Virus record (IMG/VR): IMGVR_UViG_3300048580_000994
Coordinates: 18,430 to 82,429 of that record
Direction: 5' to 3' (one strand)
DNA: 64,000 bases
Source: a virus
A model generated the notes under the pieces. It saw only the letters and a program-made list of their open reading frames with translations, was not told the origin of the DNA and did not search any database. Shown in pieces: positions 16,421 through 32,998 of the stretch; position 1 is the stretch's first letter, and the number at the start of each line of letters is the position of its first letter. The translations under genes and the position numbers were made by a program.

Positions 16421-16593
16421 GGGGCTAAAGTGTTGACGGGGGCACGATAGATTTTTCCGTGGCGGGTAACGCTTCGGGTGGATTATGAAAAATTATAATC
16501 CTACTGATGGACAAGGGTTGAAGCCCCTTTATGTGCAAGTCATATAGTCCAAGTGGCATTCTATAAGGCGGGTTTCGATTACCCGTAGCTCCA
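16421..16593 (+). tRNA. tRNA-Ala(GGC or TGC) with about 101-nt anticodon-loop intron
   Basis: Acceptor GGGGCTA/TAGCTCC with G3:U70; anticodon arm ATAGA-TT[insert]GGCAT-TCTAT. Confidence 0.78.
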
Positions 16594-16625
16594 CTAAGTA
16601 ATTTGTATTAAAGGACTCTATTAAT

Positions 16626-17492
16626 TTAGAGTCCTTTTTCTTTTTTAACATACTCCCAATTTAGATTTTCATATTTGTCTATGATAAGAAAATTCTTATT
16701 GTATATTTTTAACCATTTATCGATCCTAACCATTTGTTCTGGATTTTTCCAAGCCTTTGGGTCAAGATATAAATTAAAATCTGGTAAGAAAAAATCTGGT
16801 GTGTATGAACTGCCGCCACCAATCCAAAAATGATATGCTCGTTTCCATTTTATTCCTGCTTTATCAAGTTCATTTGCCATTTTCCATTCCCAAGTAGAAT
16901 CTAACTGGCATTCCCTTCCAAAAGAATCTATATATTGAATTTTTTTGGACCAACCACTGGCTGATCTCCATTCTGGGTGTAGTGCAATCCCGCTTGGGTT
17001 TGCCAAACAGCGTTGTCTGAGTTTTTCTTTTGTTTCGTCTGAGTGTGTGGTTTGTAATCCAGATGTAAATTGATTACCAAAAGATTCGTGGGTTGAACCT
17101 AATTTATATAAATGAGTATCTTGGTGTTGTATACCATTTTCAGTATGAGATAGCCAATAATGTGATAATAACGATGTTCTTGAATTAAAATTTTGTTGGC
17201 AATTCGGACATACCCATAAATTATTAATTAGACAATCATTTGTTATTATAGATGCAACATTAGTTTTTAATTTGTTTGGTCCAGTAAAATAAGTCCCGTC
17301 ACAGGAGTCATTGTGTTTTTTAAAATTGCTTTTAGATATTTCTCTGTTGCATTTTTCGCAGCATTTTGTTGCTTTTAATGCAGTTGATAAATTTTCGCTT
17401 CTGCATTTATCTGAACAATAATTTTTTCTTCTATTGGTTGTTGTGAATGCTGTTTTGCAGTGCTGGCATATTTTAGTTTTTTCTTTGCTCAT
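16626..17492 (-). CDS. Zn-finger PD-(D/E)xK homing-type nuclease
   Basis: STWE...YTPDFFLPDFNLYLDPK; N-terminal CxxC/C2H2 fingers; HSDETKEKL NUMOD3-like motif. Confidence 0.78.
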   Translation of the reverse strand: MSKEKTKICQHCKTAFTTTNRRKNYCSDKCRSENLSTALKATKCCEKCNREISKSNFKKHNDSCDGTYFTGPNKLKTNVASIITNDCLINNLWVCPNCQQNFNSRTSLLSHYWLSHTENGIQHQDTHLYKLGSTHESFGNQFTSGLQTTHSDETKEKLRQRCLANPSGIALHPEWRSASGWSKKIQYIDSFGRECQLDSTWEWKMANELDKAGIKWKRAYHFWIGGGSSYTPDFFLPDFNLYLDPKAWKNPEQMVRIDKWLKIYNKNFLIIDKYENLNWEYVKKEKGL

Positions 17493-17532
17493 TTTATTGA
17501 CCTCTCTAAAATTAAATGTTATAAATAAGAAT

Positions 17533-17596
17533 TAGCGGGACAAGCCCATTCACTCTTGGTGGGTTTTCCGAACCTCAGAAATTTGGAATACCGCTA
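17533..17596 (+). ncRNA. Nuclease-divergent sRNA, copy 5
   Basis: P1 TAGCGG/CCGCTA; P2 AAGCCCA..TGGGTTT; P3 TCCGAA/TTTGGA. Confidence 0.72.
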
Positions 17597-17662
17597 CTAT
17601 TATTATTTATCAATTATGAATTAAAAAGTGTAATAAAGTCAATATAATAAGGAGAAATATAT

Positions 17663-18049
17663 ATGGAATTAATATCATTAACGCAGTTATTTAAACCAAT
17701 TATTGGGTTGTTTGAAACATTTAATAAGCCTTCATTTGATATAAACAAGCCCTCTGTATTAAATGTTAGTATTAAGGAAATTGATGTGTATAAAAAATAT
17801 GAATTGAATATTAAAAATAATGGGAATGGTTTGGCTACTAAAATAAATATCAAAGTTGGTGTCCATAGTCCATTTGAACAATTTATTGAAAATATGAATC
17901 CACAAGACAATAGAAATTTTGAATTTGTGCTAAAAGAAAGTAGGGATATAAAACAAGAAAAACGCAAACGTTATTTTGAATTTGAGATGACGTATATTGA
18001 ACCAAAAGCAGGAAAAAAAGAAATTACAGAAAGAATTTTTATCGAATAA
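17663..18049 (+). CDS. Hypothetical protein flanked by a 22-bp direct repeat
   Basis: AATAAAGTCAATATAATAAGGA at 17632-17653 and 18045-18066. Confidence 0.65.
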   Translation: MELISLTQLFKPIIGLFETFNKPSFDINKPSVLNVSIKEIDVYKKYELNIKNNGNGLATKINIKVGVHSPFEQFIENMNPQDNRNFEFVLKESRDIKQEKRKRYFEFEMTYIEPKAGKKEITERIFIE

Positions 18050-18076
18050 AGTCAATATAATAAGGAAAACCCTCCA

Positions 18077-18316
18077 ATGAAAACTCATATTAGTATCCCT
18101 CGTTTAGAACTTTGGGAATTTTTGGAATGGATGACTGATAATAATGTTGTATATAATGTTACAGATGAAGATTTTTTAATGAATGTTGTTTCTGCGTCTG
18201 ATTCAAAATATGGTAGATTTTTTGGTTCAACATCCACTTTTAAGTTTCCCATTGAGATATTATCTAATGAGGTATTATTTAGATTGCGCTGGGGTGGGTA
18301 TGAATATTTGGAATAA
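18077..18316 (+). CDS. Small protein with C-terminal LFRLRWG motif
   Basis: ORF with RBS; C-terminal motif shared with other ORFs. Confidence 0.6.
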   Translation: MKTHISIPRLELWEFLEWMTDNNVVYNVTDEDFLMNVVSASDSKYGRFFGSTSTFKFPIEILSNEVLFRLRWGGYEYLE

Positions 18317-18583
18317 AATTGATAAATACTCTTATGATAATACTTTACCCTCTTGACCCATTTAAAACACAATTCATTAAAGATGAATATGAAAGGGGAG
18401 TGTCTTGTGTTGAATCTGCGAAAGAATGGGATAGAATATTAAACGAGAGCACTACTGATTATACAGAATTAATTAATGATTTAAAAGATATTATTAAAAA
18501 AGTTGATCTTTAACAAAACCTTCTTGACAAAAAATTAAAATCTGGTATAGTGGATAAAGTTAAACAATTGAGGAGTGCTGGTT

Positions 18584-19021
18584 ATGTATGCTATTGAGTC
18601 TTTTGATTTTAATGACACTTTTGAAAAATGCAAGAACATTGGTTGGGAGAGCTACGTTACAAAGGTGGAAAGTATTAAGGCTGCCAATAGTCGTCCTACT
18701 CGTGCGTTGACTTTTGGTGATATTACCAAGCGTTTGAAGAGGAATAATGTGGTTATTGTTTATTCTGCATCTCGTCATTTTCGGTCTGTTACTAAAGAGG
18801 TGATTATTGGTACTGGTGTTCATTATTTCAATAATGGCAGCAAGGATGCTTTTCTTAATAAGAAGGTTGTTTATTCTGGTGGTCTTGTGGACACTCTGCA
18901 TTTGTTTGTTGGTGATCGGAATCTTCGGGCTGGTATTGTTAATGGATATAATGATTGGTTTTTGTTTGCCAATCTGTATGATGCTGAACAGTGGTCCAAC
19001 AAGGAACATGTTGTTTGTTAA
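18584..19021 (+). CDS. Hypothetical early protein
   Basis: TTGACA..TATAGT promoter and GAGGAG RBS. Confidence 0.6.
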   Translation: MYAIESFDFNDTFEKCKNIGWESYVTKVESIKAANSRPTRALTFGDITKRLKRNNVVIVYSASRHFRSVTKEVIIGTGVHYFNNGSKDAFLNKKVVYSGGLVDTLHLFVGDRNLRAGIVNGYNDWFLFANLYDAEQWSNKEHVVC

Positions 19022-19090
19022 ATTGAGACTGATAATGGAAAATAGAATTCCTAAAGGAATTCTATTTTCAAGAAATTATTTTAGATAATC

Positions 19091-19663
19091 TCAATTAATG
19101 TTTGAGTACTCATTTTTGACTTGTTCAAATATTGTATTTGGCAATTCTACTTGTAATAAATTTTTTAAATGTTTGATACATTCTTTTACTACTGCTACTG
19201 TTTCTACCAAATGTCCATTATTGCCTCTAACATCTGTTGGTGTGTATTCTCTCCAATATTTAATTAAAGTTTCTCCGTGTGTTGTTTTCAATTTGTTATT
19301 TACTGCGAAACCGAGTATGGATGCTTTATTGTTGGAATTATAAATTTTCCCTGTTACGTAGAATTTAAATTTTGTTTTTCTTTGACGGTTTGGGTTATTG
19401 CGTAATACATCATTATTATCAAAGGTATCATATGAAGCATCATTTCTTACCATTTCCACTTGAAAGTTTGGTTTTATTAATTTATTAAGTTTGTTTGCGA
19501 CTATTTTTAATTTATTGATTGTGTATATATATTCTTTACCTTCTTCTTCGAATGGTTCATCGAACAATGTGTTTTTGGCTGCAATGACTGATTTTTTGAT
19601 TGCATTGAAATCTTCGTTTATTTTGGTAGCTTCCATTAATTTTCTCATATCTGTGGCTGACAT
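19091..19663 (-). CDS. Hypothetical late protein (DMRKLME leader)
   Basis: AAGGAGA RBS and upstream TAAATA. Confidence 0.7.
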   Translation of the reverse strand: MSATDMRKLMEATKINEDFNAIKKSVIAAKNTLFDEPFEEEGKEYIYTINKLKIVANKLNKLIKPNFQVEMVRNDASYDTFDNNDVLRNNPNRQRKTKFKFYVTGKIYNSNNKASILGFAVNNKLKTTHGETLIKYWREYTPTDVRGNNGHLVETVAVVKECIKHLKNLLQVELPNTIFEQVKNEYSNIN

Positions 19664-19776
19664 AATAATTTCTCCTTAAAATTTGTTATATAAATATATT
19701 TATTTTTTCCATAAAATCGCTTGACTAAAAATTAAAATCTGTTATACTGATTTAATCAAATGATGGAGTGACTATT

Positions 19777-20073
19777 ATGAACATCGCCCGAGAAATTTTT
19801 CGTCAGCTTGGTGGGAATCGTTTTTCTGTTATGACTGGTTCGAAGAATTATACCAGCATTGGGAATGGGCTGCAGTTTAGCCTCCCCAAGCGATATAATG
19901 GTATTAATAAGATTTCCATTACTCTTGAAGGGGATGACACTTACACTGTGCGGGGATATTATTTTAGTGTGTCCAAGTTGACCTGTGATATGGTTCAAGA
20001 AGTTTCTGGGGTATATTGTGAAAATCTGCAGGAGGTATTTACTTCCATGACTGGATTGTATACTAGGCTTTAA
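19777..20073 (+). CDS. Conserved-looking small phage protein
   Basis: IFRQLGGNRFSVMTG...DDTYTV...YCENLQEVFTSMTGL; own promoter. Confidence 0.65.
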   Translation: MNIAREIFRQLGGNRFSVMTGSKNYTSIGNGLQFSLPKRYNGINKISITLEGDDTYTVRGYYFSVSKLTCDMVQEVSGVYCENLQEVFTSMTGLYTRL

Positions 20074-20091
20074 AGAAAAATTTAAATATTG

Positions 20092-20117
20092 AAAAGCACC
20101 CTTGTGGTGCTTTTTTT
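20092..20117 (+). terminator. Repeated intrinsic terminator (also 20877-20902 and 22019-22044)
   Basis: AGCACC-CTTGT-GGTGCT followed by a T run, identical in three copies. Confidence 0.85.
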
Positions 20118-20255
20118 GTGAGTAATTTCTGAGTATAAAAATATATTATCTGAGTGTTGTGGAGATAATAAATTTGCATTGGTGTGCTCTGAGTGGTATA
20201 TTGGTGTTATAGAGTGAAGTTTTGCACTCACAACCATTATGGATAGGAGATTGCT

Positions 20256-20867
20256 ATGGGGAAAAATTTTATATTAAAAGTTGCTACTACATTATCTGAT
20301 GGTGGGGTTGATATTAAGAGTTTTAATTCTGAAGTAAATGAATTGATTTTGCGAGATTCAACTGGTGAAGAATACGTACTGATTAAAAAGTCTAATTTGC
20401 CTGTAACAATTATTCCAAGGATTCAGGCTCCTGTATTACAGCCAACACAGACCGCTGCACCAATTACTAGGAATACAAATGGTAGATTTGTTATTAATGG
20501 GCAGCTTGTTCGTTATACAAAGAAAAGGGTTATTAATGGTATTAATGTTGAACTTACTGCTAATGGTAGGACAACGTATAATTCAAATGGTAAACGTGGT
20601 GGGACTAACGGTATTACACTACTTGCGGGTTCGATGATTTTGGTTCATCATAGTAAAAATATGGGGGATAATATTATTGAAATAAAGAATGAATTATTAA
20701 ATGTTGGGTGGTTGAAACTTTGTCAGAATAATAATCTTGTTTATATTCTTGATAATGATGTTTATTTTGATAAAATATCATCAGCCACTACTCTTATCAA
20801 TGGGCAGCGAATGGATGGTTATCGGGCTAAAGTAATGTATAAACCAGATAATTGGCAATGTGTATAA
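20256..20867 (+). CDS. DUF4357-like domain protein, paralog 1
   Basis: LLAGS...DVYFDKISSATTLINGQRMDG. Confidence 0.55.
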   Translation: MGKNFILKVATTLSDGGVDIKSFNSEVNELILRDSTGEEYVLIKKSNLPVTIIPRIQAPVLQPTQTAAPITRNTNGRFVINGQLVRYTKKRVINGINVELTANGRTTYNSNGKRGGTNGITLLAGSMILVHHSKNMGDNIIEIKNELLNVGWLKLCQNNNLVYILDNDVYFDKISSATTLINGQRMDGYRAKVMYKPDNWQCV

Positions 20868-21027
20868 AATATTAAAAAAAGCACCCTTGTGGTGCTTTTT
20901 TTGTGAGCAATTTTTAATCCTGAAAAAAAGTTAAAAAGAGTCGAAAAAGGTCTTGCAATAATTTCTAAACCTGCTATTATGATAATAACAGATGGATAGT
21001 CCAAATGTTCCAAAAGGAGATTATATT

Positions 21028-21561
21028 ATGGGTAACGAAATGATGTTGACTGTTGCGAAGCTTTTCTCCAACAGTGGTATTTCTTGGAGCGTTAATGAGG
21101 AACGGGATAGGATGACTGTTTTTGGTTCTGATGGTTCTGAGTATGTTTTTCAGAAAATTTCCAGTGACCTTCGCAATGAACAAGGTCGGTTTGTCGTTAA
21201 TGGGCAGAATGTTGTGATGAACAGTAAGCGCAAGATTAACGGGAAGATGGTTTCCTTTACTGCGACTGGTATTACCATGTATAATGGGTCGAAGAATTCT
21301 GATAATGGTGGTGCCAACTCTATTATGCTTGAAGCTGGGACGTTGGTGTGTAATGTTGAGCATCATGCTCGTGGGCTTCATGGGATTGGTGCTGACGTTG
21401 AAGCTCAGAAGATGATGTTTATCAATAATGATATTTTGGGTGAGTTTGATGAATATCGGATGATTCTTCGGGAAGATATTCATTTTGTGTCGATTTCAGC
21501 TGCTACTACTTTCATCCTTGGGAGGTTTGCCAACGGGTATGAGCATTGGGATTTGGTTTGA
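21028..21561 (+). CDS. DUF4357-like domain protein, paralog 2
   Basis: EDIHFVSISAATTFILGRFANGYEHW; shares RNxxGRFV(I/V)NGQ with paralog 1. Confidence 0.6.
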   Translation: MGNEMMLTVAKLFSNSGISWSVNEERDRMTVFGSDGSEYVFQKISSDLRNEQGRFVVNGQNVVMNSKRKINGKMVSFTATGITMYNGSKNSDNGGANSIMLEAGTLVCNVEHHARGLHGIGADVEAQKMMFINNDILGEFDEYRMILREDIHFVSISAATTFILGRFANGYEHWDLV

Positions 21562-21658
21562 TGGTTTTTGAGAAAAAAACCAGGGATTTACAGGAATTCA
21601 GTTGACAAGTGGTTTGAGTGTGATATAGTAAATTATAAATCAACAATAGGAGGTATCA

Positions 21659-22009
21659 ATGACTACAAAAATTCAGAATGGTGATTTTGTGAAAACCAGC
21701 GCAAATCGCAAAATTGTTGGGGCACCAAATGGTGAAGTACATGTGTCGAGTGGTGGTAGGGCAACTATCATTGGTAAAAAATATTTGGTTGAAGTGTTTG
21801 AGAGTAGTACTGCGATTCATGAGAATCATCACACCAGTATTGACCCTAAAGAAGCAATTCTAAAGCAACGTCTTCTTGCTAATGGGGTTATTATCCCAGA
21901 TGGACCATTTAAATATGTTTTTGTCAAGCGATATGTTTTTGATAGCTTGAGTGCATACTCAAGGTTCATATCTGGTATTAGTTCCAATGGACATACCCAA
22001 GTAAAGTAA
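21659..22009 (+). CDS. DUF4357-like domain protein, paralog 3
   Basis: LLANGVI...YVFDSLSAYSRFISGISSNG. Confidence 0.55.
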   Translation: MTTKIQNGDFVKTSANRKIVGAPNGEVHVSSGGRATIIGKKYLVEVFESSTAIHENHHTSIDPKEAILKQRLLANGVIIPDGPFKYVFVKRYVFDSLSAYSRFISGISSNGHTQVK

Positions 22010-22080
22010 ATATTAAAAAAGAGCACCCTTGTGGTGCTTTTTTTCTTGATTAAAAGTATAAATATGATAGTATAAAGAAT

Positions 22081-22155
22081 GCTTTGATAGGTTAAGTGGC
22101 AAACCGCATTTCTCGTAAAAATGAGTCCCAGCTTCGACCGCTGGTCAAAGCACCA
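22081..22155 (+). tRNA. tRNA-Thr(CGT)
   Basis: Acceptor GCTTTGA/TCAAAGC-ACCA; anticodon arm CATTT-CTCGTAA-AAATG. Confidence 0.88.
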
Positions 22156-22171
22156 CTACAAGAAAGGTTTT

Positions 22172-22834
22172 ATGATGTTTACGTTTAATAACAAGACCAA
22201 CGAAGTTCCATGGGATGAATATTTTGACATGGCTCATCAGCTTGGTATTACTCCGAATATGTTTGAATTTGATTGGCAATTTGACAAAGAAAGTGTCAAG
22301 GAGCATTTGGAAAAATACTCCCGAGATTATTGGACTATTAATGGTTGTTATGTTGGGTTAGCATCCAATGCAGACGCTATGATGTTGGTGTTGAAATATT
22401 CTTGTAAGAAGATTGACGCCAAGGTATATTTTGGTGATATTAAGGATAGATTATCTTATAAAACCCATCCAAGAATTTTGGATAAATGCTCTGAAAAATA
22501 TTTGAAGGGGTTAATTTCTGCAATGATTCGGAAGAAGACCAAAAGCATTACTCCTAACATTTGTCCCAACTATAGCTTTACCCTTGGGGAGATCGAGGCT
22601 ATTTTGGAAGATAAGATTTACGAACGAAATCGAAAAGAAACCATTGCGAGGAAAGCCCCAGAAGAACTAAAGCGTATTTCCACTCGAAAGCTTTTGAGAG
22701 CATATAGGGATTGGGCTGCTTATGAATATTATGAGGGGATTTATATTGAAGGTGTTCTGTATGGTTCTTTGGTTGTCAAGGCTGTTTTGGACGTAAGGGA
22801 ACATTTGAAGAAGAAACCGAAAATTAGGAGATAA
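22172..22834 (+). CDS. Hypothetical protein
   Basis: Start moved past the tRNA; AAAGG RBS. Confidence 0.65.
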   Translation: MMFTFNNKTNEVPWDEYFDMAHQLGITPNMFEFDWQFDKESVKEHLEKYSRDYWTINGCYVGLASNADAMMLVLKYSCKKIDAKVYFGDIKDRLSYKTHPRILDKCSEKYLKGLISAMIRKKTKSITPNICPNYSFTLGEIEAILEDKIYERNRKETIARKAPEELKRISTRKLLRAYRDWAAYEYYEGIYIEGVLYGSLVVKAVLDVREHLKKKPKIRR

Positions 22835-22899
22835 ATATTGCTATATATGATGGGATTAAGGTAGTATATGGTGATATTGGGGTGAAAAACCCCAACAAT

Positions 22900-22981
22900 G
22901 GAGGGTAGCATCCGAGGTGGATAACTGGCTTCGAACCCCAGGCCAACCGCAAGGTTGAAGTTTCGACTACTTTACCTTCCG
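22900..22981 (+). tRNA. tRNA-Ser(CGA)
   Basis: Acceptor GGAGGGT/ACCTTCC-G; loop TTCGAAC; long arm AACC-GCAA-GGTT. Confidence 0.75.
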
Positions 22982-23026
22982 CTAAAAATTTGATAAATAC
23001 TTTTAACTCTAAAATGGATTCCAATT

Positions 23027-23635: not shown

Positions 23636-23674
23636 TTGATTTTTTGTGATATGATGAATAAAAGGAGAATAATA

Positions 23675-23908
23675 ATGGATGCAACATTAGACATACCACT
23701 TCAAGTTACAGTTCGTTTGGGTAAAACAAAAATGTCCATCAAACAACTTTTGAAAATGGGTAGGGGTGCTGTATTGGAATTGGATAATTTAGTCACAGAC
23801 CCAATTGAACTATTAGTCAATGGAAAGGTTGTTGCATTGGGTGAAGTTGAAATTGTTGGTGATAATTATGGGATTAAGATAACTGAAGTTTTTGGGAAAA
23901 CAGCTTGA
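23675..23908 (+). CDS. fliN: FliN-like flagellar switch (SpoA) domain protein
   Basis: LDIPLQVTVRLGKTKMSIKQLL...GAVLELD...LVNGKVVALGEVEIVGDNYGIKITE. Confidence 0.88.
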   Translation: MDATLDIPLQVTVRLGKTKMSIKQLLKMGRGAVLELDNLVTDPIELLVNGKVVALGEVEIVGDNYGIKITEVFGKTA

Positions 23909-25820: not shown

Positions 25821-26140
25821 TGATTCAAGAAGCCTTCAAAATCGTTGAACTGGAAAACGGGGAAATCAAAACCCTATTCCATGGCATCAACAACTCCCGA
25901 ACAATGCCGACGGGGGTTTGGTTAGAAGCAGACGAGAAAATTGTTCGTGACGGTTCTGGGGATCGCTATTATATTTCTGGTTGGCACACTTTACCAACGT
26001 ATGAGGATTGTGTAAAATATATGTCCAGATTTAAAAACAGGACAGACATCCTTACCATCGTCCCATGCGAAATTAAAGACATTAGACTAAAGGACCATTC
26101 CAAATCACCAGTGAATTTGTCCAAGTATATAAAATTTTAG
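25820..26140 (+). CDS. Hypothetical protein
   Basis: TAATG stop/start overlap with the previous gene. Confidence 0.6.
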   Translation: MIQEAFKIVELENGEIKTLFHGINNSRTMPTGVWLEADEKIVRDGSGDRYYISGWHTLPTYEDCVKYMSRFKNRTDILTIVPCEIKDIRLKDHSKSPVNLSKYIKF

Positions 26141-26646
26141 GAGATTGATATGCCAAGAATGTTAGACGAAGAAACATCAGCGAAAATGATTTGTCCCTAC
26201 CTTCAAGATAAATGCCACACCCGCACTTGTATGGCTTGGCGTTTTGAAGACAAACCAATTCCAGAAGACGAGAAGAACCCTAAATTTAGAGGGTATTGTG
26301 TTATAATGGAAAAATAAGAGTTGAATTCATTCTCATGTTGCCCAGCAGTGCAACATAAATGATAAAATCGCTAATTTAATATGCTCTATTGCGCTTTCAA
26401 GTATTAAATGTGCGTAAACCGGAATTCGTAAAATATTAAGGAAATTTTATCAACTGCACCATCTTATCCTTGACACCAACTAAATATCTTGCTAATATAT
26501 CCTGATGACGTTAGAAAGGATTGTATGATGATTATCACCAGTGGGGTCATTTTTTTGATTTGGCTTCTTAGCTTATTTTCCAGTAAAGCACCAAGTGGAT
26601 TCATTTTCGTCATTTGGTTCTTTAGTCTTTTTTGTCTGTGAATCAA

Positions 26647-27474
26647 ATGAAACAAAAAACATTAACCAAAACAATATCGTTCTCAGGTGTAGGACTTCAC
26701 AATGGTAAACAGGTTAATGTTTTACTCTTACCAGCCCCACTAAACACCGGAATTATTTTTCAGCGAACAGACGTTGGGGGAAATAATATCATCCCAGCCT
26801 TGTGGAACCTTGTCCACACAACCAACCTAAACACTTGTTTGAAAAATGACAACGACGTTACCATTTCCACAATTGAACACTTGATGGCAGCATTATCAGC
26901 CTCTAACGTCACCAATTGTCATATCCAAGTCAACGGACCAGAAATTCCAATTTTGGATGGCTCTGCAGATATTTTTTACCAGACAATCAAACCCGATACC
27001 ACAGAACAAAAACTGAACCAAAAATCCATCAAGATTTTGAAACCAATAACCACCCAAACAGTGTCTTTGATTCCGGCTGACGAATTTTCCATTGAACTTT
27101 TTATTGATTTCCCAGCCAAAATCATAGGGACACAATCATTCCACTATCGAGACAACTTCCCTGAAATCTCCCAAGCCAGAACCTTTGGGTTTGGGAACGA
27201 GATTGACTACCTTCGGAAAAATAACCTTGCCTTGGGTGGGAGTTTGGATAACGCTATCGTTGTGGCTAACGATGGGGAAACGATTTTGAACGATGGTGGG
27301 CTGAAATACAATGATGAATTCGTCCGTCATAAAGTCATCGATGCTATCGGGGATTTGTATCTCGCTGGTTACCCAATCATTGGTAAATTCATTGGGGTAG
27401 GTTCTGGACATTCAATGAATAACGCCCTATTGCGGGAACTTTTCAAAAACCAAGATTGTTGGGAGATGGTATGA
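26647..27474 (+). CDS. lpxC: UDP-3-O-acyl-GlcNAc deacetylase
   Basis: GVGLH, TIEHLMAAL, PILDGSA, ARTFGF, HKVIDAIGDL and GSGH motifs. Confidence 0.95.
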   Translation: MKQKTLTKTISFSGVGLHNGKQVNVLLLPAPLNTGIIFQRTDVGGNNIIPALWNLVHTTNLNTCLKNDNDVTISTIEHLMAALSASNVTNCHIQVNGPEIPILDGSADIFYQTIKPDTTEQKLNQKSIKILKPITTQTVSLIPADEFSIELFIDFPAKIIGTQSFHYRDNFPEISQARTFGFGNEIDYLRKNNLALGGSLDNAIVVANDGETILNDGGLKYNDEFVRHKVIDAIGDLYLAGYPIIGKFIGVGSGHSMNNALLRELFKNQDCWEMV

Positions 27475-27911
27475 AACCTGAAATAACATATTTTCCCAGT
27501 GGTCCAAAACATCAAGAAACTTGGTATTTGGATGATTATGACACTGTGCATCGTATTGGTGGACCTGCAAATCAACAATGGTACACAAATGGGTTATTAT
27601 TTAGCGAGGCATGGATGGAATATGGTTTGCTTCATCGTGTTGATGGACCTGCAATAAGATTTTGGTTTAGAAATGGGCAGTTGCGTTCGATTAGATGGGC
27701 TATCAATGGAAAAACACATCGTATTGGTGGTCCAGCATTTCAAACTTGGGATGAAAATTGGCAAAAACAAAAAGAACAATGGTGGGTGAATGACATTGAA
27801 AAAACCAATGAAATCCTTCAATGGATAGAAAAAGATAATATTGAGTTGGATGAAAATCACAGCATCGTCAAGAAGAACGATTTAATGATTTTTAAATTGA
27901 AATTTGGCTGA
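27471..27911 (+). CDS. HRxxGPA-repeat (MORN-like) protein
   Basis: Three HR(I/V)xGPA repeats; ends IFKLKFG. Confidence 0.75.
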   Translation: MKPEITYFPSGPKHQETWYLDDYDTVHRIGGPANQQWYTNGLLFSEAWMEYGLLHRVDGPAIRFWFRNGQLRSIRWAINGKTHRIGGPAFQTWDENWQKQKEQWWVNDIEKTNEILQWIEKDNIELDENHSIVKKNDLMIFKLKFG

Positions 27912-28497
27912 GTTATGTTATAATGAGAATTATCTATGTGTGTGCTGGGGAAGATTTTTCCCATTCGTATGTGACCCTGCTTTATTCTCAATCCGAGCAG
28001 GAGTGTACCCGAGACCAGCAGCAGTGTTCTTTAGTGAGCATCAGTCCCCAAATTTGAGACACTGGGAACGGTAGATAATAAACTAAATACCTTTATAACC
28101 CCTTTGAGAATTTTAATTATGGATAAAGATTTTGAAGATCATATAAAAAGTGTTAAAGAAAGTTCTGAAAAATTTAGAGAAGAACATGAGGAAGAACTGC
28201 TTGAACGATGCAGAAATGTATTAACAGATGATTTTGAAACAAGGGCTGCAGAATTGCAAATTCGTTCAAAAATTTTTAGAGAAGAAAATAAAGAAAAATT
28301 AAAATATATGCTTTTGAAAGCCAACGAAGGTCTTAAAAATATGGGAAAATAATAAAAATAATTATTGACTGTAATGACATTTTAGGATATATTGGGAAAA
28401 TAAGAAGTAGGAAATAATTTTTTGAGAATCGTTGAAAAAAATTAAACGGATTTTGAAATGGACGATAAATAAAAATATGAAGTAAAGGTTACAATTT

Positions 28498-28569
28498 GCG
28501 TCGTTAGTTCAGCGGTAGAACTCTGTCTTTACACGGCAGCTGTCGGTGGTTCGATCCCATCACGACGCA
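28498..28569 (+). tRNA. tRNA-Val(TAC)
   Basis: Anticodon arm CTGTC-TTTACAC-GGCAG. Confidence 0.92.
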
Positions 28570-28579
28570 CTTATAATTT

Positions 28580-28651
28580 TGGGGTATAGTTCAGCGGTAG
28601 AACACCGGTCTGTTAAACCGGGAGCCATTGGTTCGAATCCAATTTCCCCAG
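28580..28651 (+). tRNA. tRNA-Asn(GTT)
   Basis: Anticodon arm CCGGT-CTGTTAA-ACCGG. Confidence 0.9.
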
Positions 28652-28674
28652 CTGATATGATAAATAAAGAGATT

Positions 28675-28748
28675 CGGAGTGTGGGCCAAAGGCTGGCCGC
28701 CAGTTTTGGGAACTGGACATCGAGTGAGTTCGATTCTCACCACTCCGA
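28675..28748 (+). tRNA. tRNA-Pro(TGG)
   Basis: Anticodon arm CCAGT-TTTGGGA-ACTGG; acceptor CGGAGTG/CACTCCG. Confidence 0.85.
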
Positions 28749-28786
28749 CTTACTAATAAAATCAATAGGTTAGCAGAAATGTTAGC

Positions 28787-29389
28787 CTATTTTTTATATT
28801 TTTCTTCCCACAATCTTACTCTTTCAAATAACTCGTCTATCGTTATGGATGAATTATGGTTCTTGCGTGAATTATCAGATTGTGAAATTAATTTACAATT
28901 CGCTGGGTGACTTATAAAAAACGGGTCTATTTTATTTTTAAAACCATCAGCCATGCTATACATGTGATCCCTTGATATTCCCCCTTTATTTGTCAGAGAA
29001 TTAAACATCCCATGTTGTATTAATAATTTAAAATCAAATTCTTCTGGATAATCTTTGATGTTAAATAAAAACTTTGATTGTTCTTTGTATTGTTTTTTAT
29101 CGTTCATAAAATCAATTGGTTTAACACGTAATTCATTGTTGAATTTTGCAGCACAAGAACTTGAGCAGAACTTTCTTTGGTGCCATACTGTTAAATAATT
29201 ATCACAACAAATACATTTTCGTAGCTTTGATTGGTATTTTATTAATAAATCTGCAGCTATAATTCGTTTGGTTAAAATACAAGAACATTTTGGTCTTGTG
29301 ATTGTACCATTTGATAATCCATGCATTCTCATATGCCCAGATAGAGCATTTTGGTTTTTAAATTCTTTTTGGCATATATCACATTTCAT
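28787..29389 (-). CDS. C2H2/Zn-ribbon HNH-type endonuclease
   Basis: CDICQKEF...HMRMH finger; RDHMYS...HPANC...DN. Confidence 0.78.
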   Translation of the reverse strand: MKCDICQKEFKNQNALSGHMRMHGLSNGTITRPKCSCILTKRIIAADLLIKYQSKLRKCICCDNYLTVWHQRKFCSSSCAAKFNNELRVKPIDFMNDKKQYKEQSKFLFNIKDYPEEFDFKLLIQHGMFNSLTNKGGISRDHMYSMADGFKNKIDPFFISHPANCKLISQSDNSRKNHNSSITIDELFERVRLWEEKYKK

Positions 29390-29426
29390 CTTGCGTTTTC
29401 TCCGGTATAAGTGTATAAATAATGAA

Positions 29427-29485
29427 AGTGGGACACCCCATCCTCCGGTGGACTTCAGTTGTCAACAATACTCCTGATCACCACT
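29427..29485 (+). ncRNA. Nuclease-divergent sRNA, copy 6 (divergent)
   Basis: AGTGGGACA..CCA-TCCTCCGG-TGG..TCAG/CTGA..CCACT downstream of TATAAATA. Confidence 0.65.
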
Positions 29486-29575
29486 ATTAGTATTATTTAT
29501 CATTATGGTTATAAAAGTCAATAATTATGTTGACATGATTGCTAAATAAGTGTAGTATCTAAAAGTAAGATTAAT

Positions 29576-29650
29576 GGATCGGCCAGCGGTATTTACTGGA
29601 GGGTTTTCTTCTAAAAAACTCATATGCGGGTTCAACTCCCCAACGGTCCT
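29576..29650 (+). tRNA. tRNA-Arg(TCT), atypical
   Basis: Anticodon arm GTTTT-CTTCTAA-AAAAC. Confidence 0.6.
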
Positions 29651-29700
29651 CTGAAAATGTTTGACAAAGTATGGAGAAAAAGGTATATTAATAAAATCAA

Positions 29701-29772
29701 CTGCCCATAGTAAAAGGGATATTACAGGAGTCTTCTAAACTCTTAGTCCAGGTTCGAATCCTGGTGGGCAGG
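29701..29772 (+). tRNA. tRNA-Arg(TCT)
   Basis: Anticodon arm GGAGT-CTTCTAA-ACTCT. Confidence 0.9.
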
Positions 29773-29959
29773 CTAAATTCTCCAACAATATCAATGACTT
29801 ACAACTAAAATCCCCCATAAAATTCCAAGAATTATTTCTTGGAATTTTTTTTATTGACAAATCATCAAAAATGGGACAAGATGATAAATAATAGTATGGA
29901 AAGAAATTCCATTGGGATTTTTAGAAGTTCCATATTAATCCAAGAAGGAGGATACAATT

Positions 29960-30208
29960 ATGGTAAGTGCAATATCTGGTGTTAGTCATTCTGCTCAACG
30001 GGCATATGCTGTTCAAATGCAGAGTATTTTATCACAAAACCGTCAAGAAGAGCGTCAAGCTGTAGCGGCGATTTCTGGTGTTTCGTCTGTATTATCTGGA
30101 CAAGTTCAAGCTGAACAAAAGCCAAAGGAAGAAAAGAAAACTGAACAACCAACCACACAATATGCTTCGGCTGAAGGTCGGGGTAAGAGTGTTAATATAG
30201 TGGTGTAA
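29960..30208 (+). CDS. Small low-complexity protein, YjfB/motility-protein-like C terminus
   Basis: Ala/Gln-rich helix ending GRGKSVNIVV; AAGGAGG RBS. Confidence 0.5.
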   Translation: MVSAISGVSHSAQRAYAVQMQSILSQNRQEERQAVAAISGVSSVLSGQVQAEQKPKEEKKTEQPTTQYASAEGRGKSVNIVV

Positions 30209-30211
30209 GAA

Positions 30212-30451
30212 ATGGCAACAGAGAATGATTTTGTAAATTATCCGAGAATGGTTAGTGGATATTGGGTTCACAATGCTGCTGCAGATGCTGTAGCATCGAG
30301 GGGGCTTGATCCAAAGACTACACCACCAACACAAGATTATAGTTTACCTGTGACTGCATCATTTGCCAATACAGGATTAAACAATCGTTTATCTGGTGGG
30401 TTGAATAGTTTTATCAATGAACTATCGACTTCATATTCTAAAAAAGAGTAA
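30212..30451 (+). CDS. Hypothetical protein
   Basis: Coupled to the previous gene. Confidence 0.55.
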   Translation: MATENDFVNYPRMVSGYWVHNAAADAVASRGLDPKTTPPTQDYSLPVTASFANTGLNNRLSGGLNSFINELSTSYSKKE

Positions 30452-30599
30452 TTTATTCTTTTTTGATAAATAGTCATACTATGGATGAATTTGACAAAAG
30501 ATTAAGACAGAAGATTAAAGAATATATAAGAAAAAACAAGGAGCGTTTGAAGAAGCTTTTCAAGCGCAAGAAACCTGTGTCTGAATCTGGTGAAAAGAA

Positions 30600-31187
30600 A
30601 TGAGATTGTATGAAATAACACGAATAACAAAAAACTCCCAAGCCACCAGAATATTAAAAAGATCTGGGTGGGAAATTGCTGGTGAAGGCGCGAACGCTAC
30701 TGTGTATTTTCGTGAGGACAAACCATATGTTTTAAAAATATTTACTCCTTATGATAGTGCGTTTGTTGCTTATATAAAATTTTGTCAAAAAAATTCAAAC
30801 CCGCATTTCCCTAAATTTTATAAGGATATTGTTAAAATAACTAAAAATTTGTGTGCTATTAGAATGGAGAGGTTGTATCCATTGGATGAAACAGAAGAAA
30901 TTATAACAGGGTTAGAAATATTGGCTTCGTATATTTCAAAATATTCTATTGATCCATCGTTTCTTTCGCATTCACCAGAAAAATTAGAAAATTTTTTGAA
31001 AGAAGTGGTTGAAAAACGAAATGATGTTCTTAATTATTTTGATGAATCTGTGGTGGCAGCTGCAGAATTGGTACCTGATATTGCTAAAAATAGAGGACAT
31101 TTAGATATGCATCCACGTAATTTTATGCAACGATTGGATGGTACATTAGTTTTTTCTGACCCTATTACTACTTTTTTTGGGAGATAG
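30600..31187 (+). CDS. Ser/Thr protein kinase-like protein (MRLYEI leader)
   Basis: GEGANATVY Gly loop, VLK, MERL, DMHPRN catalytic loop, SDP. Confidence 0.8.
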   Translation: MRLYEITRITKNSQATRILKRSGWEIAGEGANATVYFREDKPYVLKIFTPYDSAFVAYIKFCQKNSNPHFPKFYKDIVKITKNLCAIRMERLYPLDETEEIITGLEILASYISKYSIDPSFLSHSPEKLENFLKEVVEKRNDVLNYFDESVVAAAELVPDIAKNRGHLDMHPRNFMQRLDGTLVFSDPITTFFGR

Positions 31188-31189
31188 AA

Positions 31190-31615
31190 ATGAGATTGTA
31201 TGAACTATCATTAGTTTCCAAAAAATGGTTAAATTCACCCACTGAAGGATTTTTGGAACCAACTGTGGAAAACATTTCGAAGGCGAAAGAGTTTGTATTT
31301 CGTAAATGGAAGGAGCGTGCTATTGAGCGAATGGAACGTGAACCATTAGATTTATCCACTGCTTGTAAATTCAGTTCATTATTTGTGAAGATGGTATTTG
31401 GCGGGACGATAAAGGGGACATGGGAGCATCAATACAATGACATTAATGGGGTAGTGGTTGACCTAAACAGCGATGCTGGGGACGTTTTAAGGCTACTGGA
31501 GCCACATAAGCATGATAGAAGGTTCATTGGTAACAGGGAGCATAATGAGTCGTTAGAGTCTTGCATTCCAAGGGTGAAACGTTGGGTAGAAGAATTTCAT
31601 AATAGTGTCAGTTAA
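31190..31615 (+). CDS. Hypothetical protein (MRLYEL leader), possible papain/transglutaminase-like fold
   Basis: ACKFSS...EHQYN...VVDL spacing suggests a Cys-His-Asp triad. Confidence 0.5.
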   Translation: MRLYELSLVSKKWLNSPTEGFLEPTVENISKAKEFVFRKWKERAIERMEREPLDLSTACKFSSLFVKMVFGGTIKGTWEHQYNDINGVVVDLNSDAGDVLRLLEPHKHDRRFIGNREHNESLESCIPRVKRWVEEFHNSVS

Positions 31616-31693
31616 TGGTCTGATTGTGGTGATAAATACTTTTGTGGAATAATCTTTCCACAAAAATCCCAACAATTTAGGAGTGATTTAATT

Positions 31694-31837
31694 ATGGTCA
31701 CCACAATAGCCAAGAACTACATTAATGAAATATTAAAAGGCGAGCGTCAACTTCAAAAGATTGAGAAGACTGAGCAGAAGGTTGAGCAGGAAAAATTCCG
31801 CAAAGACGAGTCAAAAAATATTGATATTTTGGTGTGA
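31694..31837 (+). CDS. Small protein ending KNIDILV
   Basis: Manual translation; AGGAG RBS and upstream GATAAATA. Confidence 0.5.
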   Translation: MVTTIAKNYINEILKGERQLQKIEKTEQKVEQEKFRKDESKNIDILV

Positions 31838-31845
31838 TTTAAGTT

Positions 31846-32646
31846 TTATTTTTTGATAGCACTAAACCCCAACCTATTTAATAGGGAGTATACAGTCCCT
31901 ATGTTATCGTGTTTTATGATTTTAGTTATTTCTGAAACAGTATAATTATCACAAAGATTTTTTATATGTTGTTTCATGGAGTTCCAATCATTAATAAATT
32001 CTTTTGTTTTTAGGTTATCCAAACGTAATCCAAAATATTTATTACAACCTTTCATTATTTGGATTGAATAGTTTATATTACAAGAACAATCCTTTTTATG
32101 TTCTCCGCAGCAGTGACAAATTTTTATTTTCTCCCAAGATAATTTTGGGGTCCATGGTCCTTTTGGTCCTATCCACCCTTGACCAATATATTCTTCGATT
32201 AAATGTTTTGGGATTTTGATTCGTAAATTATCTATCCAAGAATGAACCATCCAAGTGGTTCCGAATTGGGAATTTAATTTTCCGCCTTGTGAGTTATTCA
32301 TTGTGACAGGCATATTTTTTCTGGCATATTCATAAAGATGAGAATTAAAATATCTATTTTGGTTGTGAGATATAGATGAACTTTTCATCATATTAAGTGC
32401 TTTAACCATACTATACCATTCTATGGATTTTTCAGGTAACATTTTACAGAGTAGATAGTGACAAATAAAATGTTCTCTGGCTGTTAATAAGATTAAATTA
32501 TTTGTATTATCCAATCCACCTAATGACCTTGGTAGTATATGGTGTTTTTCATAATAAGTTTCTTTGGATTTAATTCTTTGTTGTGATTTGGCGTTTTGGA
32601 TAATTCCATAATACCAGTTATAATATTTGTTTTTTATAAAAATCAT
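31846..32646 (-). CDS. HNH homing endonuclease, paralog of 13095-14135
   Basis: YYEKHHILPRSLGG...LTAREHFICHYLL. Confidence 0.88.
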   Translation of the reverse strand: MIFIKNKYYNWYYGIIQNAKSQQRIKSKETYYEKHHILPRSLGGLDNTNNLILLTAREHFICHYLLCKMLPEKSIEWYSMVKALNMMKSSSISHNQNRYFNSHLYEYARKNMPVTMNNSQGGKLNSQFGTTWMVHSWIDNLRIKIPKHLIEEYIGQGWIGPKGPWTPKLSWEKIKICHCCGEHKKDCSCNINYSIQIMKGCNKYFGLRLDNLKTKEFINDWNSMKQHIKNLCDNYTVSEITKIIKHDNIGTVYSLLNRLGFSAIKK

Positions 32647-32682
32647 TTTGACTTATCTCCAGTCTAAAGTTATAAATAGATG

Positions 32683-32742
32683 AGCGGGACAAGCCCTACT
32701 CCAGTTGGGTTTTTCAGATGGTCGAATCTCTGAAATACCGCT
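32683..32742 (+). ncRNA. Nuclease-divergent sRNA, copy 7
   Basis: Identical to copy 4 up to P2, different P3 (TCAGA-TGGTCGAATC-TCTGA). Confidence 0.75.
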
Positions 32743-32824
32743 ACTATTATTTATCTTTTTCTTTCATTTTTGTGTAAAAATAATTTGACAAAATGATAAA
32801 TAAAGTTTACTATATAATTAATAT

Positions 32825-32998
32825 TCGGGGATCATCTAACGGTAGGATCGCAGACTTTGAGTGTGAATTTTTAATAAAATTCCAATATCCATTTATAAAT
32901 AAATGGATAATTGTGGGAGGAGGATTTAAGTCCTAAAGAGTGCAAATCTCAGCCCTCCACATTATCTGCTTGTCGGGGTTCGAATCCCTGTCCCCGAT
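32825..32998 (+). tRNA. tRNA-Gln(TTG) with 103-nt intron near position 37/38 (32861-32963)
   Basis: Anticodon arm GCAGA-CTTTGA[insert]A-TCTGC; acceptor TCGGGGA/TCCCCGA. Confidence 0.82.

Follow-up and report, generated by a model that had tools for sequence, protein, structure and literature searches.

Two split tRNA genes of a large lake-water phage carry related structured inserts that resemble Lak megaphage tRNA introns in architecture

A tRNA-Ala gene (16421-16593) and a tRNA-Gln gene (32825-32999) of a large lake-water phage each contain an insert in the anticodon loop, 101 nt and 103 nt long respectively, and the comparison of the two inserts supports their being homologous structured RNAs. 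The nearest described thing is the set of tRNA introns of the Lak megaphages, and the kind of element thus has precedent. Coordinates refer to the window, the whole 64,000-nt stretch of DNA that was analysed, which is part of an 82-kb contig. The split genes consist of the following parts:

16421-16454, + strand: 5' exon of tRNA-Ala, positions 1-34, ending with the wobble base U34 (in silico joining)
16455-16555, + strand: Ala insert, a putative intron of 101 nt between U34 and G35, without an Rfam family
16556-16593, + strand: 3' exon of tRNA-Ala (in silico joining)
32825-32860, + strand: 5' exon of tRNA-Gln, ending with A37 (ARAGORN -i, in silico joining)
32861-32963, + strand: Gln insert, a putative intron of 103 nt at position 37/38 (ARAGORN -i), without an Rfam family
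32964-32999, + strand: 3' exon of tRNA-Gln (ARAGORN -i, in silico joining)

In silico excision of the inserts yields perfect cloverleaves for both genes, with 7-nt anticodon loops, U33 and A37, and the anticodons of the joined exons agree with the identity elements, which are G3:U70 in the resulting canonical tRNA-Ala(TGC) and U1-A72 in tRNA-Gln. The Ala junction is ambiguous: removal of 16455-16555 gives the anticodon TGC and removal of 16454-16554 gives GGC, with a clean tRNA-Ala either way. An earlier note on this DNA had bounded the Gln insert as we do, and its approximate Ala bounds (16454-16554) correspond to the GGC alternative. ARAGORN with its intron option makes no call at the split tRNA-Ala gene. 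The region of the split tRNA-Gln (32630-33077) is matched without difference by a contig of another study. No target duplication or terminal repeats are visible at either insert, and neither ARAGORN nor the Rfam tRNA model calls a nested tRNA inside them. The same contig carries an intact tRNA-Ala(TGC) (4879-4953) and an intact tRNA-Gln(TTG) (3035-3121), so the split copies could be dispensable. There is, however, a third split tRNA in the window, Thr(TGT), and since it is the sole Thr(TGT) copy there, some route of removal is likely to exist.

Both inserts adopt a common fold, with two 5' hairpins (a and b) followed by a three-way junction in which a bulged helix (c) closes two small hairpins (1 and 2). 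The Ala insert folds at -32.5 kcal/mol (z -3.0), with equally good folding in 2 of 200 shuffles, and the Gln insert at -28.5 kcal/mol (z -4.25), with none of 200 shuffles folding as well. The elements of the fold are:

16456-16478, + strand: Ala hairpin a, 1 nt past the 5' junction (fold)
16480-16501, + strand: Ala hairpin b, AT-rich (fold)
16502-16512, + strand: Ala helix c, 5' strand, UACU, GA bulge, UGGAC (fold, alignment, pair counts)
16513-16529, + strand: Ala hairpin 1, 5-bp stem and loop UUGAAGC, a perfect T-arm shape (T-arm scan, fold, alignment)
16530-16544, + strand: Ala hairpin 2, stem UAUG/CAUA and loop UGCAAGU with a G-C closing pair (fold, alignment, pair counts)
16547-16555, + strand: Ala helix c, 3' strand, reaching the 3' junction (fold, pair counts)
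32862-32884, + strand: Gln hairpin a (fold)
32887-32908, + strand: Gln hairpin b, AT-rich (fold)
32912-32920, + strand: Gln helix c, 5' strand, UGU, G bulge, GGAGG (fold, alignment, pair counts)
32921-32934, + strand: Gln hairpin 1, AGGA-UUUAAG-UCCU (fold, alignment, pair counts)
32938-32950, + strand: Gln hairpin 2, GAG-UGCAAAU-CUC (fold, alignment, pair counts)
32954-32961, + strand: Gln helix c, 3' strand, followed by 2 nt (UU) to the 3' junction (fold, pair counts)

Helix c consists of 3-4 bp, a purine bulge in the 5' strand, and 5 bp with a conserved GGA/UCC core; together with hairpin 2 it amounts to 11-13 bp, compared with 12 bp in the acceptor and T stack of tRNA, although 2-3 linker nucleotides lie between the T-like stem of hairpin 2 and helix c, unlike in a real tRNA. 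The loop of Ala hairpin 1, UUGAAGC, is also the T-loop of the tRNA-Phe of this phage (408-479). Hairpin a begins 1 nt past the 5' junction in both inserts, and the conserved 3' module ends 0-2 nt short of the 3' junction.

The loops of the small hairpins, UUKAAG and UGCAARU, are spaced identically in the two inserts. The degenerate motif TTKAAG-N10-TGCAART has exactly two matches in the 64-kb window, one per insert, against 0.02 expected in shuffles and at least two in 0 of 100 of them, a count that is partly circular as the motif was built from these same two sequences. The 3' domains align with identity in 30 of 55 columns, whereas no alignment could be made between the 5' halves. Each of the 10 modelled pairs forms in both inserts, and in four of them both partners have changed; in this two-sequence test slid controls pair in 32-60% of cells and 32 of 500 shuffles do as well. 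The shared fold, loops and spacing and the four compensatory pairs point to selection acting on RNA rather than on DNA. Much of what the earlier note had described holds: its hairpin and loop sequences sit where it placed them, and each insert has a junction with two T-loop-like hairpins. Its single AT-rich hairpin becomes two 5' hairpins by fold, its closing helices TGGAC/GTCCA and TGTGG/CCACA are present but are parts of the longer bulged helix, and its statement that little primary sequence is shared applies to the 5' halves and not to the 3' half.

Only these two copies were found, both in one phage, and no relatives appeared in IMG/VR, JGI metagenomes, GTDB genomes, INPHARED or eight related huge-phage records. 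No Rfam family fits either insert (E<=10, noise aside; searched over 16380-16640 and 32790-33020), and the Rfam tRNA model gives no score to the 3' module of either. Of the proposal of a distinct intron class, the homology of two structured inserts is supported; with two copies in a single phage the class itself would be no more than a candidate, and the Lak introns are a precedent in kind.

The established intron types were each considered and rejected, as the same note had anticipated. Group I introns in the tRNA anticodon loops of bacteria and phages belong to subgroup IC3, with examples in cyanobacterial tRNA-Leu and Azoarcus tRNA-Ile, and the inserts resemble them in lying in the anticodon loop of a bacterial-type tRNA, in having no ORF, and in having nuclease genes nearby. 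The boundary rule of group I introns (U before the 5' junction, G as last intron base) is kept by the Ala insert under the TGC reading (U34 before it, a final G, then G35), but is broken by the Gln insert (A37 before it, a final U, then A38); the inserts also differ from group I introns in having no P3-P9 core, and at about 100 nt they are about half the size of the smallest of these. The conserved catalytic core of group I introns spans P3-P8, with the guanosine site in P7, and the Rfam model for it, Intron_gpI, has no match at E<=10 on either locus, and none in the window at the gathering score. Group II introns are marked by 5' GUGYG, 3' AY and a domain 5 hairpin; the Gln insert starts with GUGUG but ends in UU, the Ala insert starts with UUCCG, and the sole group II-type match, of Ala hairpin b to the plastid D5 model, scores 16.5 bits against a cut-off of 65.5. 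The archaeal and eukaryal bulge-helix-bulge is a 4-bp helix with a 3-nt bulge on each side, one per strand, and the bulges contain the cut sites. No such motif is seen in the sequences or folds: in Gln the CACA that precedes the final UU of the insert is not complementary to bases 32-35 of the loop (CUUU), and in Ala there is no pairing across the junctions.

Devoto et al. 2019 (PMC6784885) describe 'enigmatic' tRNA introns in Lak megaphages, which lie in the anticodon loop, are 79-114 nt long, and have no Rfam family. We checked their layout by eye for the four introns printed in Table S6 (PMC6784885) and by fold for the tRNA-Gly intron (loci L371 and L379), in which a 5' hairpin and a linker lead to an 8-bp helix that encloses two hairpins (one a T arm), with 3 nt left before the anticodon stem. 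Common to the Lak introns and to our inserts are a 5' hairpin 0-1 nt past the junction and a 3' three-way junction with one T-arm-like arm, which stops 1-3 nt ahead of the exon in Lak and 0-2 nt ahead of it here. Both inserts therefore show the features of the Lak type, a family without formal definition: an insert of ~80-140 nt in the anticodon loop, no Rfam family, a 5' hairpin and a 3' tRNA-like junction. The Lak 3' module is a miniature tRNA-like structure comprising an acceptor-like helix, a D-like hairpin with GG in its loop, and a canonical T arm (TTCGAAT-type loop) directly beside the closing helix. The present inserts differ in having T-loop-like sequences in both loops (UUKAAG and UGCAARU), a purine bulge in the closing helix, and a second hairpin on the 5' side. 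The phages belong to different lineages and come from gut and lake water, respectively. Model R1 has no match in L371 or L379, and the likeness is one of architecture, not of demonstrable sequence homology.

Because the Lak layout matches, we interpret the junction with its twin T-loops as a tRNA-like module in miniature. A T-loop is a pentaloop whose first base, U, and fifth base, A, form a reverse Hoogsteen pair, U1-A5 (PMC4810234); UUGAA/UUUAA and UGCAA fit this rule by sequence, with closing pairs, as putative T-loops. The G-C closing pair is like G53-C61 of the tRNA elbow, and Ala hairpin 1 is indistinguishable from a T arm; the partner loop in the inserts differs from that of an elbow in not being a D-loop. 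In view of the Lak layout, the 3' junction is better read as a mimic of a tRNA or its elbow than as an elbow binder.

The explanation we tentatively favour is that a single structured RNA element is present in two diverged copies, which serve as tRNA introns (34/35 in Ala, 37/38 in Gln) and are removed by enzymes that read tRNA shape, together with a ligase. Each would be built of a variable 5' part (the two hairpins) and a conserved 3' module, in which a bulged 8-9-bp helix closes two hairpins, one T-arm-like (UUKAAG) and the other with a second T-loop (G-UGCAARU-C). This module may mimic a tRNA body on a small scale, the helix taking the place of the acceptor and the two loops forming the elbow, Lak-like in kind. 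Protein or ribonucleoprotein enzymes recognizing tRNA-like shapes would cut the pre-tRNA at the helix bases, the 3' cut being of RNase Z type, measured from the elbow and falling 1 nt beyond the acceptor-like helix. For the 5' cut there is no candidate enzyme, because the site at which RNase P would cleave the module lies between hairpin b and helix c and not at the 5' junction. The tRNA body would keep the exon halves together for resealing by an anticodon-loop RNA ligase of the T4 Rnl1 type, and as DNA the inserts probably also protect the tRNA genes against the free-standing homing endonucleases encoded nearby.

This logic of cutting and rejoining, the canonical 37/38 site in Gln, and an intron structure that sets the cut sites are shared with archaeal and eukaryal tRNA introns, although here there are no two 3-nt bulges 4 bp apart and the genome is that of a bacterial virus. 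Searches for a splicing endonuclease (EndA; PF01974) and RtcB (PF01139), which had been suggested previously, gave no match in any of four records, the contig and three related phages, with positive controls; no RNA ligase, RtcB or splicing endonuclease was found in the 82-kb contig, which represents about 33% of the genome. T4 Rnl1-type ligase (PF09511) is present in two of the three related complete or near-complete huge phages (90.5 and 79.2 bits), one of which also has an intron in tRNA-Thr(TGT). In T4, anticodon-loop breaks are repaired by Pnkp and Rnl1, and the tRNA regions of T-even phages contain free-standing homing endonucleases (SegB). The present system is similar in the ligase family of its relatives and in the nuclease genes among its tRNA genes, and differs in that the 82 kb examined give no match to an Rnl1-type ligase; to our knowledge, Rnl1/Pnkp-type enzymes have been linked to intron removal nowhere. 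A broader proposal, which we regard as unlikely, is that these inserts and the Lak introns represent a third tRNA-splicing route, with a built-in miniature tRNA, excision by tRNA end-trimming enzymes of the cell (RNase Z or RNase P type), and resealing by a phage Rnl1-type enzyme. If true, resealing would proceed through 3'-OH and 5'-phosphate ends, in a pathway that is neither group I self-splicing nor the endonuclease-RtcB route of archaea and eukaryotes.

The tRNA region is crowded with free-standing nuclease genes, and both split genes have such neighbours:

16626-17492, - strand: nuclease-like gene, free-standing, adjoining the split tRNA-Ala, with a zinc finger and an endonuclease/resolvase-like C-terminus (phrog_9019, phrog_15137)
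31846-32646, - strand: HNH homing-endonuclease gene, 180 nt upstream of the split tRNA-Gln (phrog_655, E 2.9e-33)

One homologue of the former has the NUMOD3 motif of homing endonucleases. Broken or permuted tRNA pieces also occur in the region, for example at 12526-12740.

The nuclease genes beside both split genes are in keeping with the favoured explanation. The surroundings also accord with a reading that we consider possible but on balance doubtful, in which the inserts are never removed and are DNA-level insertions tied to homing-endonuclease traffic, which leave redundant tRNAs dead or exploit the tRNA body as a stable support for a small tRNA-like RNA, for instance a decoy. The packing with nuclease genes, the tRNA fragments, the intact isoacceptor copies and the lack of PF01974 or PF01139 matches in the contig and three related phages all favour it. 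Yet the exons are flawless, with exactly 7 loop nucleotides in both split genes, and the inserts are too diverged for recent copies while their pairs have been kept by compensatory changes; the missing target duplications and terminal repeats, the lack of an intact tRNA within the inserts, and the splitting of the sole Thr(TGT) gene likewise argue against this reading.

That the inserts excise themselves, as a new small self-splicing or self-cleaving ribozyme with exon ligation by the insert or by host RtcB, is rather improbable. The fold is compact, stable and conserved, the splice junctions lie at helix bases in a four-way junction, and the Ala insert keeps the U/G rule of group I introns; but the Gln insert breaks it, the insertion sites differ (34/35 and 37/38), known ribozyme and intron families give no match at E<=10, the length is about half that of the smallest group I introns, and RtcB is missing from the contig and the three related phages. 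Moreover, the junction nucleotides differ between the two inserts, with none conserved around either junction and the conserved ones a helix away, a pattern more in keeping with a measuring enzyme than with the active site of a ribozyme.

Still more improbable is an elbow-binding role, in which the two T-loops would intercalate head to tail, present a flat stacking face and contact the elbow of a tRNA, their own or another, in the manner of T-box stem I, RNase P and the L1 stalk. In topology the pair of hairpins on a three-way junction is similar to the L1 stalk, and the sequences of both loops agree with the U1...A5 pentaloop rule. Paired T-loops serve as the known RNA solution for elbow recognition (PMC4810234). 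Geometry suggests, however, that helix c, at 8-9 bp, could not span the distance between the anticodon loop and the elbow of its own tRNA, and the equivalent Lak module, a D-like hairpin and T arm, is itself an elbow and not a binder. Least credible by far are degenerate group I remnants that need a catalytic core from elsewhere, for which the position of the Ala insert after U34, its last base G and a 3' end resembling the group I 'S' consensus can be cited, but the Gln copy has none of these features, Intron_gpI fails to match even at E<=10, and the search of the whole window yielded no group I intron.

Two further features flank the split genes:

32785-32813, + strand: sigma-70-like promoter match TTGACA-17-TACTAT (10/12 to consensus), ending 12 nt before the tRNA-Gln 5' end, in a region whose count of such matches is not above that of shuffles
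16610-16637, + strand: terminator-like hairpin and T run directly after tRNA-Ala

Both split tRNA genes, for tRNA-Ala and tRNA-Gln, are missed by ARAGORN run without its intron option and by Rfam at gathering score. With introns allowed, ARAGORN calls tRNA-Gln(TTG), and also a split tRNA-Thr(TGT); tRNA-Ala is not called even then, and its exons are plain from reading the sequence.

Split tRNA genes (window coordinates)
16244-16364: tRNA-Thr(TGT), with a 40-nt intron at 16281-16320 (ARAGORN with introns); the sole Thr(TGT) gene
16455-16555: 101-nt insert in tRNA-Ala
32825-32999: tRNA-Gln(TTG), with a 103-nt intron at 32861-32963 (ARAGORN, introns allowed)

Joining the exons by script yields canonical tRNA-Ala, tRNA-Gln(TTG) and tRNA-Thr(TGT). 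The observation in an earlier note that tRNA-Ala and tRNA-Gln are split by structured inserts is borne out. The acceptor stem of tRNA-Ala carries G3:U70, and its D, anticodon and T stems are all fully paired. Its anticodon loop reads UUU before the insert and GCAU after it, which gives the anticodon TGC; shifting the boundaries one base to the left would give GGC instead. UUUGCAA is the loop of the intact tRNA-Ala at 4879-4953, which leads us to prefer the TGC reading; the Ala insert then spans 16455-16555 and falls between positions 34 and 35. The Gln insert occupies a different site, between positions 37 and 38. A promoter-like match ends 12 nt upstream of tRNA-Gln and a terminator-like hairpin follows tRNA-Ala, both being consensus matches only.

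A contig from another study spans 32630-33077 with zero differences, so the split Gln allele is not a single-sample assembly artefact. No intron-less allele was found among contigs from four runs (short pieces only); in these contigs a single weak joint from 32816 to 32911 (side 31), together with loose ends at 16282, hints at diverged relatives. The 14 public runs listed as containing the window are all lake or freshwater DNA metagenomes—none is an RNA run—and point to a lake-water lineage.

The fold energies of the inserts lie far below those of shuffled controls (z = -3.0 for Ala, -4.25 for Gln), and the predicted folds follow a common plan. One unpaired base is followed by hairpin a, one or two bases, and an AT-rich hairpin b; helix c then encloses two small hairpins, with zero to two bases remaining before the exon. 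Helix c consists of an outer segment of 3-4 bp and an inner one of 5 bp, whose GGA/UCC core is common to both copies; purines bulging from the 5' strand (GA or G) separate the two segments. Hairpin 1 reads AGGR-UUKAAG-YCCU and, in Ala, is compatible with a 5-bp stem topped by the 7-nt loop UUGAAGC. This matches a T arm perfectly in shape, and tRNA-Phe of the phage has an identical T-loop. In hairpin 2 a G-C pair, comparable to G53-C61 of tRNA, closes the loop UGCAARU. Exactly 10 bases separate the two loop motifs in Ala and Gln alike. The joint motif occurs at two places in the 64-kb window, the two inserts, against 0.02 expected, a partly circular comparison in that the motif was derived from the same sequences.

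The inserts had been described as sharing little primary sequence, which applies to the 5' halves, where there is no alignment, and not to the 3' domain, where 30 of 55 aligned columns are identical. All 10 modelled pairs form in both copies and four of them change on both sides; in control alignments with slid registers, pairing is seen in only 32-60% of cells. The junction bases differ between the copies. This is what one expects two old copies of a functional RNA to look like, two sequences being no statistical proof of structure. As a diverged pair in one genome they separate a conserved part (the tRNA-like junction and its two loops) from a variable one (5' hairpins, junction bases and insertion site).

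No Rfam family matches either split gene with a meaningful score even at E = 10, so that group I introns, group II introns and the known small ribozymes are excluded as far as covariance models see, and there is no bulge-helix-bulge motif at either junction of the Ala or Gln insert; the earlier note had anticipated the absence of group I/II cores and of this motif. The group I boundary rule (U before the intron, G as its last base) is obeyed by the Ala copy and broken by the Gln copy, which starts with GUGUG as a group II intron does, but ends in UU. Hammerhead, HDV-like, twister and similar ribozymes give no Rfam match, and the CUGAUG present in the Ala copy is unaccompanied by the remainder of the hammerhead core. 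Neither insert contains a nested tRNA (Rfam, ARAGORN). An acceptor-like stem built from the intron's own ends would have 5 bp in Gln, at a cost of 4.4 kcal/mol, and is absent from Ala, where at most 3 bp form; this idea was set aside.

The prevailing view is that self-splicing (group I) is the sole means by which tRNA introns are removed in bacteria and their viruses; phage tRNA inserts of other than group I type have been published since 2019, without any mechanism. Our literature search for a described mechanism, over openly searchable text, found only the Lak megaphage paper of Devoto et al. (PMC6784885), where introns in Lak tRNAs are termed "enigmatic". Its Table S6 prints four intron sequences, of 93 (Tyr), 79 (Phe), 114 (Thr) and 87 nt (Gly), and the authors state that Rfam detects a tRNA within the Thr intron. 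Examined by eye, these four printed introns have a short hairpin at the extreme 5' end, an A-rich linker, and a 7-8-bp helix closing D-like and T-arm hairpins, after which 2-3 bases lead to the exon. The Gly intron was retrieved from two IMG/VR loci, L371 (a 553,716-bp contig) and L379. In its minimum-energy fold, 8 unpaired bases link a 5' hairpin to an 8-bp helix that encloses a pair of hairpins. AAGAG-TTCGAAT-CTCTT is the second of this pair, and between the helix and the anticodon stem come three unpaired bases.

The Lak introns and the Ala and Gln inserts have the same plan, with splice junctions hugging the first hairpin and the closing helix in both systems; they differ in that R1, a covariance model built on the 3' domain of the inserts, finds no match at the Lak loci. 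Given the shared plan, we read the twin T-loop junction as a putative miniature tRNA-like module, in which an acceptor-like helix would be joined to an elbow formed by the two loops. We do not read it as a binder of another tRNA's elbow; that paired T-loops bind tRNA elbows, as the earlier note states, is correct as published (PMC4810234). Lak phages provide a published architectural precedent for the insert type. The earlier interpretation holds insofar as these are real, conserved, unclassified structured inserts, and is narrowed by there being only two copies in one phage, by the putative status of splicing, and by the Lak architecture already in print. The scattered "enigmatic" tRNA introns of phages may be united by one signature, in which a 5' hairpin and a tRNA-like junction at the 3' side lie tight against the two splice sites.

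A blastn search of INPHARED (50,697 phage records) gave no matches to the Ala insert and two short AT-rich matches to the Gln insert, outside the module. Pattern scans recovered 3, at least 118, and 38 stretches from IMG/VR, 14 from JGI metagenomes and 99 from GTDB genomes; these were inspected for hairpins, and the IMG/VR and JGI stretches also for flanking tRNAs with ARAGORN. R1 was scored on 298 loci (272 pattern stretches and 26 loci fetched with the Lak motif). The two inserts score 67.8 and 66.1 bits, and the best of the 298 loci reaches 23.8 bits, far from the 66-68 bits of the inserts. None of eight related huge-phage records matches R1, with the phage's own contig giving two matches as a control. 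The best-looking pattern stretch (L356) is by eye the start of an opposite-strand coding frame, and an R1 match at 72-125 is weak (16.3 bits) and lacks the loops. No further members of the insert family were found in INPHARED, among the IMG/VR matches listed, or in the JGI metagenomes, GTDB genomes and eight huge-phage records, collections from which sequences very close to the window may be missing.

Because one helix separates the conserved part from each junction, and because the bases at the junctions are variable, removal by a measuring enzyme would fit better than a ribozyme. In the predicted folds, helix c stacked on hairpin 2 amounts to 11-13 bp, near the 12 bp that tRNA end-processing enzymes measure from the elbow, and the 3' junction is about 1 base past helix c, where RNase Z would cut a tRNA. 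Such an end-processing enzyme could measure from the elbow and cut the 3' junction in the manner of RNase Z. The 5' cut has no candidate enzyme; were RNase P to act on the module, its cut would fall between hairpin b and helix c. The neighbouring 288-aa nuclease was considered as an RNA-splicing enzyme and set aside, its matches being only of homing-endonuclease type. No RNA ligase, RtcB or splicing endonuclease is found on the phage's own contig (about one-third of the genome), nor RtcB or EndA in any of three related complete or near-complete phages. Two of these three have a T4 Rnl1-type ligase, and one of the two also has a tRNA-Thr(TGT) intron.

T4 Rnl1-type RNA ligases in related phages
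G001:C1:36667-37251: in a related complete huge phage, about 1.5 kb from the topoisomerase gene
G008:C1:9261-9869: in a related complete huge phage

This ligase family is known for sealing anticodon-loop nicks, and one of its members would be the candidate sealer for rejoining the exons. The division of the inserts into conserved and variable parts yields a specific hypothesis open to testing by mutation.

The main rival is that the split genes might be dead, or used for another purpose, as their nuclease-gene neighbourhood could suggest.

Nuclease genes beside the split tRNA genes (window coordinates)
16626-17492, minus strand: nuclease-like gene, abutting tRNA-Ala
31846-32646, minus strand: HNH homing-endonuclease gene, 180 nt upstream of tRNA-Gln

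The products of these two genes are not related. Broken tRNA pieces in the region and intact second copies of both isoacceptors also favour this explanation, whereas the flawless exons of the split genes and the compensatory changes between the inserts argue against it. Were the inserts never removed, the tRNA body might act as a scaffold, or the genes might be undergoing nuclease-driven decay, either being of more modest interest. ORF-less introns beside free-standing endonucleases are known to cooperate in homing, and with nuclease genes adjacent, the inserts may also shield the tRNA genes from cleavage.

The 40-nt intron of tRNA-Thr(TGT) prolongs the anticodon stem into a rod (fold z = -5.9), with junctions that in the fold are staggered, about 2 bases overhanging at the 3' side. 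A stagger of this kind is the geometry of RNase III cuts. Introns in tRNA-Thr(TGT) also occur in Lak phages and, at L316:9724-9848 on the minus strand, in a related phage of 360 kb.

The source record, an 82,429-base virus contig (L004) of which the window covers bases 18430-82429, is classed as a provirus in IMG/VR, with a completeness of about 33% (CheckV). It encodes T4-type topoisomerase II subunits, many free-standing HNH and GIY-YIG homing-endonuclease genes, two DNA methylases, LpxC and a GGDEF protein. Among relatives of the topoisomerase, the nearest show just 46% identity, on contigs as long as 360 kb, which suggests that the window is a fragment of a large, isolated phage lineage. 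Public data also contain a 129-kb contig with the same topoisomerase protein. ARAGORN finds 44 tRNA genes, and Rfam tRNA models match at least five additional places. Free-standing homing-endonuclease-like genes (HNH, GIY-YIG, treble-clef) are unusually dense and interleaved with the tRNA genes, an uncharacterised family (phrog_23051) is common to three proteins, and there is a host-like set of signalling and envelope genes. Several tRNAs that normally have short variable loops (Gln, Gly, Glu, Lys and Asn) have an extra arm of 4-7 bp in the variable region in ARAGORN drawings.

Other features of the window and contig
Window 1618-2337, 6154-6792, 9120-10193, 10685-11923, 13095-14135, 34675-35976: homing-endonuclease-like genes
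Window 3432-4253, 10685-11923, 28787-29389: phrog_23051 proteins
Window 23636-23908, 26632-27474, 37171-38586, 56059-56493; L004 13301-13666: FliN-like, LpxC, GGDEF diguanylate cyclase, BLUF blue-light sensor and response-regulator receiver genes
Window 3035-3121, 5846-5932; L004 16020-16100, 16798-16889, 18243-18332: extra-arm tRNAs
Window 256-326, 4794-4865, 12005-12078; L004 16113-16185, 18381-18452: tRNA-like genes matched by Rfam or a T-arm/acceptor scan, without an ARAGORN call

At 12526-12740, tRNA pieces occur out of order: a T arm and 3' acceptor strand (12642-12666) lie upstream of the matching 5' half (from 12683), and a separate 5' piece with a D arm starts the region near 12526. 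The order reflects either a permuted gene or tRNA genes scrambled by nucleases. The Rfam tRNA-Sec model scores 49.1 bits at 12373-12457 (cut-off 47); the loop there is CUUCCAA, so the anticodon is not UCA, and a long-arm tRNA of another kind is more probable here than one for selenocysteine.
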